NCBI GenBank assembly: GCA_008632985.1
Contig: QPGO01000290.1
Location: forward strand, 1-64,000
From: Psammoneis japonica
Taxonomy: Eukaryota
Length of the DNA: 64,000 bases
Direction of reading: 5' to 3'
This document shows positions 1 through 62,974 of this stretch, piece by piece. The notes under the pieces are model-generated. The model was not told the DNA's origin and made no database searches. It saw only the letters and a list, made by a program, of their open reading frames with translations. The stretch's first letter is position 1, and every line of letters starts with the position of its first letter. A program made the position numbers and the translations under genes.

Positions 1-439
1 AGGTCCAGTTGGAAGATTGCTGGGCACTTCTTTGTGCTGATGGCAAGAGTCAATTCCACCATGTCACTTCCATCTGTTTTGATGCTTGTTGGTGTGGACT
101 TTGTTGACAGAAGCATCATGGTGCTCACCTCCTTTTGTGATGTTTGTTTCAGCAAGTTTTTTGGCTTTCGGCTGCATCACCATGACGTCGACATCAGGTG
201 CCAAGTTGCACAGTGGTGTGCCAATTTTGTCAATTTTTCAACCTTTTTGCAAAAAGCATTTTGAGCCAGCTTGAATCAACCAAAAGCATCTTGAAATCTG
301 GGAGGGAGTCAGAGGTCGGAGGCCACGAGAGACATTGCGCAGAAATGCACTGCGCACTCATTGCGCAGATTTCTGCACACCACAAAATTGTCTGCACTCA
401 TGCAGACCTCTGCACTCCCGAATGCTGGGGAGTGGAACT

Positions 440-3400
440 TGCGGTGGAATTTTCGGAGCCAAAAATTCCACCCTGCACGTCCCTTTCGCGTGATCAAAAT
501 TGTCTGTCCTTGGTGAGGTCGGGTGCGACGGCATGAACAAAAAAATGCCAAAAGTTCTGCTCGTCTCAATGCGGCATCTCAACCATGAGTGTCACCATGT
601 GAAACCCCAGCAAATGTGCCAATGTCAACACTGCATGTCTGGTGGCATGGCAAGCAGCACTCACACATGTCCTGAGTGCAGCCAAAACACCAGCACTCCT
701 TGTGGGAAAGCAGACGGACAACTTGCACGACTTTCAACTTTGGCAAGCTCCAAAGCACTTGTTTGAGATTGTTGCTGTGAGTTTTGTGTTTAAACAGCAC
801 TGAACAATTGCATCAGCCTGAAGAGCAACCATCATCTCATCGCACTTCCGCCAGCTTGACAAGAAAACAAGCTGCTCCCCAGTGCTGAAGGCACCACCAA
901 GGGTTGCAACTGTTGATCTTTCTGGCTTGTTCCACATCCTTGGCTTGAGATGCATTTTTTGACAACTGTTTGGCCCACAATGGCCTTGGCACTTTTGCTG
1001 CAATGGGTGCCGAGTGGACCTGTGAGTGACAACGAGCCCGGAGAAACAGTGAGAAACAAACTCTGCCACACTTGACAATCATCAAACACCCAAAAGAAGA
1101 GATGTGCAAACCAAACAAACATCACCATCACATTTTCAACACTTTCATTGGCAAATTCCATTGTTCTCACCTTTGCACTCTGAGTGCCGAGCTTGATCAT
1201 GAGCACCACTTTGTCAGACACGGTGTTGCTGATGGTGTCCTCTCTCACAGCAAAAGTCACCAAACACCCAAGAGGTGAGGATCAGCAAGAAATCCAGTGC
1301 AAGATTTGTCTTTTTCATGATCACATTGGTCCACAACGGTGTTCATTCCATCACTGCAATGGGTGCCGGGTGGACCTGTCAGCAACCACAAAGCAAGAGC
1401 AACAGTGAGAGAAAAACTGCACCACAGAAAAAAGCATCAACTGCCCAAAAGACGGGCTTTGTAATGAGTGCAAACACAACCATGAGATTTTTAATGCTTC
1501 CTCCAGCAAGCAATGACATTCTCACCTTTGTCCTCCAATCACCAAGCAGAAAAGTCGGCACTTCTGTTGCCAATGCAGTGGCGCCGCGTGCTTCCTCTCT
1601 TGCAGCCAAAGTCATCAAACATCCAAAAGACAAGGTTTGGCATCATTTTTTTCACAATCACATCAGCCTTTGACAGTGTTCACATCTTTGCTGCAGTGGG
1701 CAATGAGCAGAGCTGCGGGCATTCAAAGGTCATGGTCCAGGTGACAGCGCGGTGTTTTTTGTGTGTCGCTTGCTTCGTCTTGGAGTCTTTTTTTTTCGGC
1801 TTCAACTTCTCGTGTGGGTCTGCATGAGTTGACTGCTGGTGCACAGGATCAGTGCTGATTGCTGTGCCTGGGTCTTCTCTTGTGCAGGAGGAGTGCCGGT
1901 CTCCACAGGGAAGAATGCAGGGTGGATTTTTGTGGAGTTGTTGGCCCGTTGAGTTGCAGCCAAAAATCTGCCCAAGCAGCATTTTTCCACTGAAAAGTGG
2001 AATTCTTGCACGTGGAAATGTCAATGCCGCATGGCACTTTCTCAAAAATTCCACCACGCATCCACTGTTTGTTCCACCCAGGTGGAATGCATGGCAGAAT
2101 TTTTGGAGCCAAAAATTCTGCCCTGCGCGTCCCTTTTGCATGATCAAAATTGTCTGTCCTTGGTGAGGTCAGGTGTGATGGCATGAACAAAAAAACACCA
2201 AAAGTTCTGCTCGTCTCAATGCGGCATCTCAACCGTGAGTGTCACCATGTGCAACCCCAGCAAATGCACCAATGTCAACTGCATGTCTGGCGGCATGGCA
2301 AGCAGCACTCACAGATGTCCTGAGTGCAGCCAAAACACCAATTCTCCTTGTGGGAAAGCAGATGGACAACTTGCATGACTTTCAACTTTGGCAAGCTCCA
2401 AAGCACCCATTTGAGATTGTTGTTGTGAGTTTTGTGTTTAAACAGCACTGAACAATTGCATCAGCCTGAAGAGCAACCATCATCTCATCGCACTTCCGCC
2501 AGCTCGACAAGAAAACAAGCTGCTCCCCAGTGCTGAAGGCACCACCAAGGGTTGCAACTGTTGATCTTTCTGGCTTGTTCCACATCCTCAGCTGAAGATG
2601 CATTTTTTAACAACTGTTTGGTCCGTGATGGCCTTGGCACTTTTGCTGCAGTGGGTGCTGAGTGGACCTGTGAGCAATGTTGAGACCAGAGAAACAGTGA
2701 GGAACAATCTCTGCCACACTTGACAATCATCAAACACCCAAAAGAAGAGATGTGTAAAACAAACAAACATCACCATCACATTTTTGACACTTTTGTCAGC
2801 AAATTCCATTGTTCTTGCCTTTACACTCTGAGTGCCAAGCTTGATCATGAGCACCACTTTGTCAGACGCGGTGTTGCTGATGGTGTCCTCTCTCACCACA
2901 AAAGTCACCAAACACCCAAGAGGTGAGGATCAGCAAGAAATCCAACACAAGATTTGTCTTTTTCATGATCACATTGGTCCACAACAGTGTTCATTCTGTC
3001 ACTGCAATGGGTGCCGGGTGGACCTGTCAGTGACCACAAAGCAAGAGCAACAGTGAGAGAAAAACTGTGCCACAGAAAAAAGCATCAATTGCCCAAAAGT
3101 TGGGCTTTGCAATGAGCGCAAACACAACCACAAGATTTTTAATGCTTCCTCTGGCAAGTGACGACATTCTCACCTTTGTCCTCCAATCACCAAGCAGAAA
3201 TGTCAACTCTTTTGCTGCTGGTGCAGTGGTGCTGCGTGCTTCCTCTCTTGCAGCCAAAGTCATCAAACACCCAAAAGACAAGGTTTGGCAAAAAATCCAG
3301 TGCAAGCATCATTTTTCACAATCATCCCAGCCTTTGACAGTTTTCATGTCTTTGCTGCAATGGGCAATGAGTGGAACTGCTTCAAAGGCCATGGTCCAGG

Positions 3401-3590
3401 TGATGGTTCGGTGTTTTTTGTGCATTGCTTGCTTCATCTTGGAGTTTTTTTTCAGCTTCAACTTCTCGCGTGGGTCTGCGTGAGTTGACCGCTGGTGTGC
3501 AGGATCAGTGCTGATTGCCACAGCTGGGTCTTCTCTCGTGCAGGGGGAGCACCGGTCTCCACAGGGTGGAGTGCAGGGCAGATTTTTTTG
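440..3590. repeat. Tandem duplication, about 1.65 kb period (copy A ~440-1935, copy B ~2090-3590), of a decayed coding-like sequence
   Basis: TGATCAAAATTGTCTGTCCTTGGTGAGGTC occurs at 491 and 2141, and TTGACAATCATCAAACACCCAAAAGAAGAG at 1072 and 2720. The ORF track gives paired near-identical ORFs. The copies differ largely by CA/TG and CG to TG/CA changes. Confidence 0.9.
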
Positions 3591-60919: not shown

Positions 60920-61394
60920 GCATGTGCTGGAGGAGCTGGGTCACTGGCATCATGGCCATGTGCATTGTGCAATGAGCAGAAATGGCAATCTTTGTGTGCT
61001 GAAGCACTTTGTCAAGGGTCAGCATGCCACACTGTCAAATGGCAAAAGAAAAGCAATTGATGATTCAGAAGCCACTGCAAGCAAATCGGTCAAACACTGG
61101 AACACAGCCTGTGACAACTGGCTTCCTCATGTGTCAGCTGGAAAATGAGGTGGTGGCAATGCCATCATCATGCCAGACTTGGAGAAAATGTCAGCACAGC
61201 ATGAACCTGAGAAGGTTTTGCCCATGCTTGGACAGACTGTGAAAAAGAGATTCCATGACAAGGGCATTTGGCATGGGGGTGCCGCTTGGCGAAATGTCAC
61301 ATTGGCCAGGAACGCAAAAGGCAACATGACAAAAGTTTGCATGACAGATTTAGAGCCGCAAGGAATGATCAATCAAGTTGAAATCTCGAAGTGA
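60920..61394 (+). pseudogene. Decayed protein-kinase-like fragment
   Basis: LEELGHWHHGHVHCAMSRNGNLCVLKHF (Gly loop/Lys) and FHDKGIWHGGAAWRNV..VCMTDL (catalytic-loop-like). Frameshifted and Tyr-free. Confidence 0.45.
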
Positions 61395-62974
61395 TGGGAC
61401 TTCAAAAACATGTGGACAGACTTCAAACGGAACCTTCAAAGTAATTGGGAGCAATTCAAGGCGGCTGAAGGTGTGCAATGAACTGCGCAGGCTCCTTTCT
61501 TGGCTTGTTGCATCACCATTCTATCCATCCAGCTTTTAAAAAAACTTTGAACTGTGCTGTTCCACTTCTTGAGTTTTCTTTTGTCAACAAACTGTTCTGT
61601 TCTGCGCTCTGTGGATTCTGAGATGTTGACGCTTGGTGCCCGACAAACCAACACATGGGGGTCATCACGGTCTTCCCGTTTGTGTTCCCTCCCACCCAAC
61701 AGAGGTTTGGCCAGCCATTGGGGCACTGCAAGCCTTGGCACAGTCAATGGAATGTCCAATTCTGTTGCAATGATTACAATGACTGCTGCAGTGTGGCCCA
61801 TTTCTTTGCCCCCATCAGCACTCCAAAAGTCAAACTCTGTCGCCAACAAGCAAGGAACAACCACCCACTCACTGCAGCACCATTGCAACAACCAACAATG
61901 ATCAGTGGGATTCTCAGAACATTCCAGTGATGCCATCAAGACCACACAAAATGTTTTTCACACACCCGTGCCCACTCTCAAAAAGGAGAACAGCCACACA
62001 TCAACGTTGACGGCATGCCATGCAGAAGTTTTGGCTCCTGGAAGTCTTGCAACCACTCGGTGAGAATGCAGCATGGGCCATTTTTCTTTTTCTGCAGTGA
62101 AAAAACACACTTGGCAATGACAGTGAAGGGGTGAGAGCCACCGCCACTGGCAACCCATGGGGCAACATGAGGAGCATCACTGAGAAAGAACCCAACACCC
62201 ACAACATTGGGCATGATCAGCGTGGCACATTCTCTGGCAACCACAAATGGTGCTTGTGACCCAGTCATGCCACAATGGGGCAACAGTGGGCAGAAAACTT
62301 GGTCAGGGAACAGAAGCAACATGTGAAAGAAGTGGTGCTTGACAAGCAGGGTGTTTCCCCTGTTGCTGACCCCCTCTTCTGTCCCTGATGGGGTGCAACA
62401 AAAAAGCAGCACAGCCCTGAGGACACAGAGAAACTTGTCACAGCTGAAAGAGCAGTTTGTGAGCAAAATGCAGCACATGGGAAAAATGAAGCACCTTCAT
62501 TGGACAGGAAGAAGCACAGGAGTGTCTTTTGGCAGAGGAGAGACACACAACACAGAGGAGCACAGAAATTTCAAAAAACAATTGGAGAAAACTTGCCACT
62601 GGTGCATTGAAAGAGACACTGTGCATGAGGGATGCAGTGCAAGACATCACTGCAGGAGTGAGTTTCAAAGAGGTCAGGCCACTGCCGAAGGCACCTCCTG
62701 GGGTCAAATGTCTTGTTGAGAAAACCAATGTTGAGCACAACCTGCAGCGGGTGAACGCATTTTTTGTGTCGCGAAAAAGATCGGGTCGGAGAAAGACGGA
62801 GAATGGACAGACTCGCGTAGAAATCTACATCATCCTCCGTAAGTCTCGTCGGAGGGAGGATTTTCGATTTCAGAAAAATTTCAGTGGCGAGCAGGAGTGC
62901 ACTGTTTCCATGTTTCGACGCAACTGCGTTTGACAATAAGAACGTATTGTTGATTCGAAAAAACAAACAACAGT

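Follow-up and report, generated by a model that had tools for sequence, protein, structure and literature searches.

The window analysed here, a stretch of 64,000 bp at the start of contig QPGO01000290.1 of the diatom Psammoneis japonica (assembly GCA_008632985.1), is interrupted by three runs of N and consists of islands of ordinary eukaryotic genes alternating with domains of retroelement remnants and other repeats. One of the genes encodes a mitochondrial carrier whose named top matches are all diatom proteins at 80-87% identity; the best match, outside this named group, stands at 91%. The repeat domains are characterized by the almost complete absence of the dinucleotide TpA and an excess of TpG and CpA. 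As argued below, this composition is probably the product of a hypermutation process that acts on the DNA of these domains and converts TpA into TpG or CpA.

Over the whole window, the observed/expected (O/E) ratios are 0.23 for TA, 0.67 for CG, 1.50 for TG, and 1.54 for CA. Seven TA-poor domains (1-6100, 10101-11200, 12711-16500, 28601-32500, 34901-40000, 45601-50300, and 57901-62600; 29,390 bp) hold 91 TA, where about 1017 would be expected at the rate of the gene islands. Their O/E ratios are 0.05 for TA, 0.39 for CG, 1.72 for TG, and 1.67 for CA, versus 0.49, 0.95, 1.25, and 1.26 in the gene islands (19,942 bp), and within bases 1-1000 TA occurs only once. These figures bear out an earlier sequence-only reading of this DNA, which had described the repeat domains as nearly TpA-free, with one TA at the start of the window, and the gene islands as normal. 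The TA-free block that it had placed from 12.7 to 33 kb stands only for 12711-16500 and 28601-32500, as the stretch from 16.5 to 28.6 kb is merely intermediate (TA O/E 0.21, CG 0.92).

Stretches of at least 300 bp without any TA number 40 (three of them contain N runs), the longest reaching 1586 bp, and at the gene-island rate the probability of a gap of at least 300 bp is 3e-5. The domain borders at 6.4, 10.2, 50.5, and 62.8 kb are sharp (100-300 bp), and two others, at 44-46 kb and 56.7-58 kb, are gradual. The four pyrimidine-purine steps (TA, CG, TG, and CA) add up to a nearly constant share of all dinucleotides, namely 0.238 in the low, 0.238 in the intermediate, and 0.243 in the normal domains, and the remaining 12 dinucleotides are nearly equal across the three classes. 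Hence, transitions from TA and CG to TG and CA account for nearly all of the difference between these domains and normal DNA. As a control, 80 metagenome loci around the mitochondrial carrier gene of environmental diatoms were examined (326 kb; gene-rich, mostly short, and uninformative on the repeats of other diatoms), and none of their 596 genic 1-kb windows had a TA O/E below 0.25 (minimum 0.31, median 0.68).

The coding potential of the depleted domains reflects the same bias. Their putative open reading frames (ORFs) encode 0% Tyr and 4.5-6.4% Cys, and the loss of TAA and TAG has left many long ORFs that match no family. When 128 stop-to-stop ORFs of at least 110 aa (of 157 listed in the repeat domains) were compared with Pfam, only a Crinkler domain, two weak RT_RNaseH matches, and one ORF with two coiled-coil matches at chance level were found; the TA-free sequence is too degraded to be classified. 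The features of the window are collected in Table 1.

Table 1. Domains, repeats, and genes of the window (O/E ratios are given for TA and CG; LTR, long terminal repeat; RT, reverse transcriptase)
Feature	Position	Strand	Remarks
TA-free, CpG-poor repeat domain	1-6100		TA 0.03-0.14, CG 0.2-0.34; no Pfam match; holds tandem duplicate 447-1946 / 2097-3602
Short TA-free domain between gene islands	10101-11460		TA 0.07, CG 0.42; TA-free at 10250-11030 and 11042-11458; left border sharp
TA-depleted domain, CpG kept in left part	12711-16500		Holds paralogue c13
Paralogue c13, Crinkler N-terminal domain	12852-14787		PF20147, E 2.5e-5; embedded in repeat domain
Partly mutated retroelement remnant	16501-20785	-	Weak RT_RNaseH matches 17189-18539 (-); tandem duplicate 17126-18043 / 18042-18960
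Ty1/copia-like LTR retrotransposon, partly mutated	20786-28057	-	LTRs 20786-21073 and 27770-28057; gag-pol 23561-27515; internal N gap 22641-23559
High-copy 375-bp repeat	28495-28870 and 15811-16186		High summed contig depth at 28335-29002
TA-free, CpG-poor domain	28601-32690		TA 0.03, CG 0.33; 375-bp repeat, solo-LTR-like copy, inverted Copia gag fragment
Solo-LTR-like copy	28892-29139		Within domain 28601-32690
Degenerate inverted Copia gag fragment	29461-30311	+	Homologous to 26586-28057
Paralogue c34	33664-35044		Gene island 32501-34900
Most extreme TA-free, CpG-poor domain	34901-40180		TA 0.03, CG 0.17; TA-free runs up to 1586 bp; no Pfam match
Fourth paralogous gene or fragment	41049-41261		Same small family as c13, c34, and c51
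TA-free, CpG-poor domain	45601-50540		TA 0.04, CG 0.42; intermediate shoulder 44.7-45.6 kb; sharp right border at ~50.5 kb
Paralogue c51	50348-51968		Gene island 50301-57200
Retroelement ORF, 619 aa, part C-terminal to RT domain	56724-58580	-	No Pfam match; 458 homologues, of which the long ones bear RVT_1 upstream of the region matching the ORF
TA-free domain, moderately to strongly CpG-poor	57901-62820		TA 0.04-0.10, CG 0.18-0.64; sharp right border at ~62.8 kb
Control gene islands	6251-10100, 32501-34900, 40401-44700, 50301-57200, 62601-64000		TA ~0.5, CG ~0.95; ordinary eukaryotic genes

The direction of the change can be read from the Copia-like element of the intermediate stretch, whose homologues bear Pol_BBD, gag_pre-integrase, and SH3_retrovirus domains. 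This element has a TA O/E of ~0.25 and has lost three quarters of its TpA, and its CpG is intact. Since the Tyr codons TAY become CAY or TGY when TpA is converted to CpA or TpG, replacement of Tyr by His or Cys reports the loss of TpA. At the 17 columns in which at least 60% of the Copia homologues have Tyr, the window shows Tyr only twice, along with six His, four Cys, two Val, two Leu, and one Phe, while other conserved residues are retained at 178 of 308 positions (Fisher test, 2e-4). The closest homologue, P0125, gives the same result, as 36 of its Tyr residues align with 3 Tyr, 15 His, and 7 Cys in the window, whereas its other residues are retained at 547 of 1170 positions (p 1.4e-6 versus Tyr). 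At 10 Tyr positions of P0125 the degenerate inverted gag fragment has four Cys, one His, and no Tyr, and in comparison with the homologous part of the element it shows both TA and CG changed to CA or TG (of 91 CG, 34 have become CA and 26 TG), with the Arg to His or Cys changes that accompany the latter. The GC content of the Copia-like element is 0.55-0.57, versus 0.47 in the host islands, and its 872-aa gag-like ORF has no match to a Pfam family or to a PDB sequence.

The two LTRs of this element (288 bp, 97% identical) differ at eight positions, all of them transitions. Five oppose TA to TG or CA, two constitute a single CA/TG double difference, and one lies elsewhere, so that seven of the eight fall within TA-derived steps; when the LTR pair is aligned with a third copy, TA, TG, and CA are all represented at three sites. 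As LTRs are identical at the time of insertion, their differences at TA steps indicate that the mutations post-date it.

A small family of host-type genes provides a second line of evidence. Three of its members, c13, c34, and c51, are about equally diverged from one another, and only c13, the copy embedded in a repeat domain, is depleted of TA (in the surrounding 12301-14100, TA O/E is 0.08 and CG 0.98). At the nine sites where both c34 and c51 have TA, c13 has TG five times, CA twice, TA once, and AA once, while TG and CA shared by c34 and c51 are retained in c13 at 31 of 40 and 36 of 45 sites, respectively (p 1e-4). The comparison of the two genic copies serves as a control. Here, 65 transitions stand beside 66 transversions, only one CA/TG double difference is present, and mismatches show no excess in pyrimidine-purine steps (40 of 314, versus 91 of 478 elsewhere).

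Repeats present in more than one copy agree with this polarity. Summed contig depth over 28335-29002 is 28,000-44,000, versus ~70 for single-copy sequence, which points to a repeat (the 375-bp unit) of several hundred (~500) genomic copies. The window has CA or TG at 28537 and 28713 and CA at 28098 and 28660, but nearly all of this depth reads TA at the first two positions and CG at the other two. Depth is also high, at 4,600-7,900, over 32677-33344.

If an ancestral TA is lost separately in each of two copies, half of such sites should end up as TG in one copy and CA in the other, like the outcomes of a coin flip, and such CA/TG doubles are indeed the commonest difference between duplicates. 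They number 30 in the tandem pair 447-1946 / 2097-3602 (90.5% identity, with 121 transitions and 21 transversions), nine between the two 375-bp repeats, and 14 in the tandem pair of the intermediate stretch. The numbers expected for double transitions of every type are 9.8, 1.7, and 2.8, respectively. In the last of these pairs the 51 differences are all transitions, and 46 lie within pyrimidine-purine steps, comprising, besides the 14 CA/TG, seven TA/CA, four TA/TG, and seven steps with CG in a single copy; CG is kept in both copies at 36 sites. Since its CpG is thus intact, the 14 CA/TG of this pair must be derived from TA. Judged from these sequence comparisons, the change from TpA to TpG or CpA is polarized by five independent lines of evidence, namely the outgroup proteins, the paralogue trio, the LTR pair, the coin flips, and the majority copies. 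The notion that the elements had been TA-free from the start, which the sequence-only reading had singled out for checking, is refuted, as the sites with TG or CA, or His or Cys, in the window are occupied by TA or Tyr in outgroup homologues and in most genomic copies. The replacements described in that reading, of TA by TG or CA in duplicates and of Tyr by Cys or His, with loss of TAG stops, were all recovered in the duplicates, the Copia alignments, and the ORFs, where TAA stops are lost as well.

Several properties of the process can be deduced from the same comparisons. In three sets of young duplicates, mismatches affect 46 of 474, 25 of 198, and 7 of 134 pyrimidine-purine steps, versus 5 of 444, 1 of 177, and 1 of 154 positions elsewhere. 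In other words, 46 of 51, 25 of 26, and 7 of 8 differences fall within such steps, with 0, 1, and 0 transversions. The TpA process runs at a rate some two orders of magnitude above that of background substitution, and it outpaces the decay of CpG. All 23 of the 1-kb windows with a CG O/E below 0.5 have a TA O/E of at most 0.11, and four windows combine a TA O/E of at most 0.10 with a CG O/E of at least 0.6. As CpG-poor windows are always TA-poor, and TA-poor windows with CpG exist, the loss of TpA represents the faster and earlier layer, and the decay of CpG the slower one.

Both strands are affected equally. The choice between TG and CA is close to even in four comparisons (14:16, 8:6, 4:5, and 17:22), and runs tests on these choices (P 0.30, 0.94, 0.26, and 0.54) revealed no strand-coordinated runs of the kind expected of a processive single-strand deaminase. 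Among the replacements of Tyr, His and Cys stand at 6:4 in the conserved columns and at 15:7 against P0125 (p 0.13). The even ratio and the lack of clustering indicate independent events on both strands, and argue against the editing of sense RNA and against long processive tracts on a single strand.

The bases that flank TpA also have an influence. The TpA remaining in depleted domains are not randomly distributed, with 25 in TTAA and 18 in CTAA+TTAG, none in ATAT, and a single one in GTAC. These data were fitted with a per-strand additive model for ten tetranucleotide classes, in which the loss rate of each adenine depends on its 3' neighbour. The rates obtained are 2.14 for T, 1.89 for C, 0.95 for G, and 0.48 for A, with a residual deviance of 4.2 on 6 degrees of freedom and a likelihood-ratio test against a single rate of chi2 81.9 (p 1e-17). 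The rule can be written as T-A-Y > T-A-G > T-A-A if adenine is the target, which is the same as R-T-A > C-T-A > T-T-A if thymine is. In the tandem pair of the intermediate stretch, which was outside the fit, a 3' A is found at 6 of the 9 TA retained in both copies, versus 1 of the 19 mutated sites (p 0.0014). A uniform-rate model was also tried on this pair and rejected, since according to our own arithmetic its 10 TA/TA and 11 TA/x sites predict ~1.5 CA/TG, where 14 are seen; flank-dependent rates account for this excess.

Taken together, these observations are best explained by a domain-restricted hypermutation of TpA to TpG or CpA, acting at the DNA level on transposon and repeat domains of the diatom nuclear genome and joined, in the older parts, by the decay of methylated CpG to TpG or CpA. 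We assign this reading a probability of about 0.8. A separate A:T to G:C process at TpA, confined to transposon and repeat domains and distinct from C-to-T mutation, had been postulated from the sequence-only reading, and the duplicates, Tyr columns, LTRs, and majority copies all speak for it. The comparisons show that A:T is changed to G:C at TpA after insertion or duplication of the element, equally on the two strands and at each site independently. According to this model, targeting would be directed to silenced (methylated, heterochromatic) foreign or mobile DNA, as a form of genome defence, and in the simplest reading an enzyme may deaminate the adenine of TpA, or a modified form of it.

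Some points weigh against this interpretation. All results come from a single 64-kb window and a single sample, and the polarized sites are few in each comparison (nine in the paralogue trio, eight differences between the LTRs). Some of the CA/TG coin flips in the CpG-poor domains may derive from CG instead of TA, and the flank rule could owe part of its shape to where new TAs arise, besides where TAs survive. The short-read run that corroborates the assembly (X1, see below) probably stems from the same sample, and is thus not independent. The retroelement ORF at 56724-58580 does not display the Tyr signal, having only four conserved-Tyr columns, three of which are Phe. Finally, that the process is ongoing, that it recognizes silenced chromatin, and that it serves defence are, for this diatom, conclusions that we infer.

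Among the alternatives, an artefact of sequencing, assembly, or polishing might be suspected from the N gaps of the window and from the use of one sample only, and is next to impossible. The separate short-read contigs of run X1 (Logan, ~70x) agree with the TA-free sequence at 29.0-31.8 kb and at 34.8-38.0 kb, each contig showing 0-4 differences, so that the pattern is present in the reads, where the sequence-only reading had advised to look for it, and does not originate from assembly or polishing. Moreover, it follows the borders between genes and repeats and yields coherent changes from Tyr to His or Cys. A second run, X2, does not cover most of the TA-free bins and was not used as evidence. 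It could also be imagined that no TpA mutator exists, and that the domains are foreign or ancient sequences that were TA-poor originally, or that lost TA by selection or by GC-biased gene conversion. Most genomes have somewhat less TpA than expected, and the gene islands themselves have an O/E of ~0.5. Yet the changed sites carry TA or Tyr in outgroup homologues and majority copies, the CA/TG coin flips need a TA or CG ancestor, and not one of the diatom genic windows of the control falls to such ratios. Biased gene conversion would in addition deplete AA, AT, and TT, all three of which are unchanged, and selection is implausible in degenerate sequence without recognizable coding capacity. We therefore consider this group of explanations very improbable.

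Hardly more credit can be given to A-to-I editing of retrotransposon transcripts by an ADAR/ADAT-like enzyme, fixed in the genome through reverse transcription and re-insertion. The identifiable targets do include retroelements, and known A-to-I editors favour a U before the edited A (bioRxiv 10.64898/2026.01.13.699255; PMC11156358, in the parts covered). Nevertheless, editing of sense RNA can only convert Tyr to Cys, whereas His, for which the antisense strand must change, occurs at least as often (6:4 and 15:7). The LTRs of one inserted element differ from each other at TA steps, i.e., they changed after insertion; the host-type gene copy c13 and non-coding flanks are affected as well; near-total depletion tracks the borders of domains and not those of elements; and the order Y > G > A on the 3' side does not resemble the fungal preference for UAG and UAA (PMC11156358).

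A different chemistry at the same dinucleotide is a more serious alternative, which we regard as possible although clearly the less probable one. The thymine of TpA, rather than its adenine, could be oxidized by a TET/JBP-like enzyme to 5-hydroxymethyl- or 5-formyl-uracil that pairs with G, or a TDG/MBD4-type G.T glycosylase active in methylated domains could correct replication mismatches at TpA to C:G. The latter would be analogous to the very-short-patch repair by Vsr that causes the depletion of CTAG in Escherichia coli; the context order of TDG and the presence of 5-hydroxymethyluracil at TpA in dinoflagellates belong to the same background. This route suits the palindromic nature of TpA, which it shares with CpG, as well as the equal and independent action on both strands and the co-localization of TA loss with domains of CpG decay, and the flank rule reads equally well as R-T-A > C-T-A > T-T-A. 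Even so, TA is lost before CpG, and also in the CpG-intact regions 12.3-14.1 and 16.5-28.6 kb, so that it does not simply follow the decay of CpG. As TpA is palindromic, the window does not separate an adenine from a thymine target.

Returning to TpA hypermutation as such, the process has one described counterpart, in the chlorarachniophyte Bigelowiella natans (Mettrop et al., bioRxiv 10.64898/2026.01.13.699255). According to the main text of this preprint, 231 of the 302 nuclear single-nucleotide mutations of mutation-accumulation lines fell in integrated giant-virus and virophage regions, at ~6e-7 mutations per site per generation. Of these 231, 230 were A-to-G or T-to-C, all 230 at TpA. Furthermore, the genome contains 124 clusters of 1-kb windows that are depleted of TpA and enriched in CpA and TpG, and among its coding sequences those low in TpA show an enrichment of reverse transcriptase and DDE-endonuclease domains. 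The authors proposed a defence by an ADAT2-like DNA adenine deaminase, based on sequence and model similarity only. With the thresholds of that study, 32 of the 64 1-kb windows analysed here qualify, forming six clusters.

Both systems share A:T to G:C transitions confined to TpA and a restriction to foreign or mobile DNA, given that in our window retroelements are affected and gene islands are spared, most of the TA-free sequence being too degenerate to classify. They differ in the host, which is here a diatom, i.e., a stramenopile and not a rhizarian, and in the targets recognized: instead of giant-virus and virophage inserts, LTR retrotransposons and other retroelements are hit here, together with a gene copy that lies in a repeat domain. 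The depletion in the diatom is near saturation (O/E 0.03-0.08), whereas the region of nucleocytoplasmic large DNA virus origin in B. natans stands at 0.45. Moreover, CpG decay coincides here with TpA loss. The terms diatom, CpG, flanking, and trinucleotide are absent from the main text of the preprint, and in comparison with that text the flank rule, the strand symmetry, the independence of sites, and the order with respect to the loss of CpG are additions of the present analysis. In turn, the process of B. natans was observed in real time by mutation accumulation, while that of the diatom is read from a finished sequence. The novelty claimed in the sequence-only reading has thus to be restricted, as TpA hypermutation is already known from B. 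natans. For diatoms, no report was found in the literature, including term look-ups in papers on diatom transposons and phytoplankton mutation, as far as the consulted parts of these sources extend. What is new is the occurrence in another major lineage, its far more advanced state, and the additional constraints on the mechanism.

Fungal repeat-induced point mutation (RIP) resembles the present case in the wholesale transitions that it introduces into repeated or mobile DNA, in the destruction of coding capacity, and in a dinucleotide signature that forms blocks beside normal genes. However, RIP changes C to T at CpA and creates TpA, while here TpA is destroyed and CpA and TpG are created (TA 0.05, CA 1.67, TG 1.72), and no strand-coordinated runs are seen. 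RIP also depends on duplication. The 'reverse-RIP' label of the sequence-only reading, with its implication of a repeat-induced process, is not supported by the paralogue trio, where of three similar copies only that in a repeat domain was depleted of TA; from this single case, position or chromatin, and not duplication alone, seems to decide the loss of TA. Likewise, the main target in B. natans is single-copy, according to the text of the preprint.

Regarding CpG, the changes from CG to TG or CA in the TA-poor domains (CG O/E 0.17-0.4) are like those produced by the decay of methylated CpG. That decay cannot remove TpA, whose loss comes first and extends to regions where CpG is intact. Since diatom repeats are CpG-methylated (PMC5124317, in the part covered), CpG decay would be expected here, as a second, slower layer.

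RNA editing by ADAR and ADAT2/ADAT3 shares with the diatom process an adenine read as guanine and a strong preference for a 5' U or T (PMC11156358 and PMC11087585, as far as covered), and for the mRNA editing by fungal Tad2/Tad3 frequent changes at UAG and UAA have been reported (PMC11156358). Those enzymes act on RNA, while the change considered here is heritable, affects both strands of DNA after insertion, and prefers Y > G > A on the 3' side. This flank preference differs as well from the pattern of the error-prone polymerase eta, which is centred on AA and TA (WA). Polymerase eta had been listed among the candidate agents in the sequence-only reading, together with a TadA/ADAT-like deaminase and the deamination of a modified adenine.

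A broader hypothesis, which we regard as speculative and rather unlikely, is that silenced DNA in algae of the stramenopile-alveolate-rhizarian (SAR) lineage bears two palindromic marks, TpA as well as CpG. A heterochromatin-directed enzyme system would modify or deaminate the A (or the T) of T-A-Y on both strands of transposon and viral DNA, and the resulting mutations would erase TpA faster than methylated CpG is lost; the cases of the diatom and the chlorarachniophyte would then reflect an ancient shared defence and not convergence.

A mutator directed against the TpA of mobile DNA would be the mirror image of fungal RIP. It was undescribed before 2026, and has so far been described for a single chlorarachniophyte, in one preprint. 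The diatom case, near saturation on ordinary retrotransposons, suggests that the process could be widespread in marine algae and shape their repeat landscape. Genome annotation is misled by it, as long ORFs arise spuriously where TAA and TAG are lost, and as domain searches miss the degraded elements. The search for the enzyme is now constrained by the action on both strands, the independence of events, the order T-A-Y > T-A-G > T-A-A, a rate above that of CpG decay, and the confinement to domains. Diatoms include transformable model species, in which knock-outs and reporter insertions are feasible.

A few further observations concern individual features. The retroelement ORF at 56724-58580 spans one of the gradual borders, and its TA counts per 200 bp run 12, 5, 5, 2, 1, 3, 1, 1, 0, and 0 into the next TA-free domain; from the layout of its homologues, it represents an unclassified retroelement domain. 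The most extreme TA-free domain contains a perfect (CTTT)26 microsatellite at 38050-38154. In X1 contigs, adjacent T>C and G>A differences from the window, i.e., swaps of TG to CA, are found at 36841-36842, 29607-29608, and 32908-32909. That at 36841-36842 is present at full single-copy depth (72.8 of 72.8). It may represent a coin flip between alleles, in which case the process would have been active recently, or else stem from a further copy or from a difference between assemblies. A contig of 972 nt from run X2 links 33841 to 33928, omitting 86 nt within the c34 gene; this gap resembles a spliced intron, and X2, recorded as 'DNA?', may perhaps be an RNA library. Finally, in the first gene island, a single ORF at 8242-9462 (-) carries two domains, a class-II glutamine amidotransferase (GATase_4, E 1e-33) and a SAM methyltransferase, its Atlas matches being generic bacterial methyltransferase clusters only.

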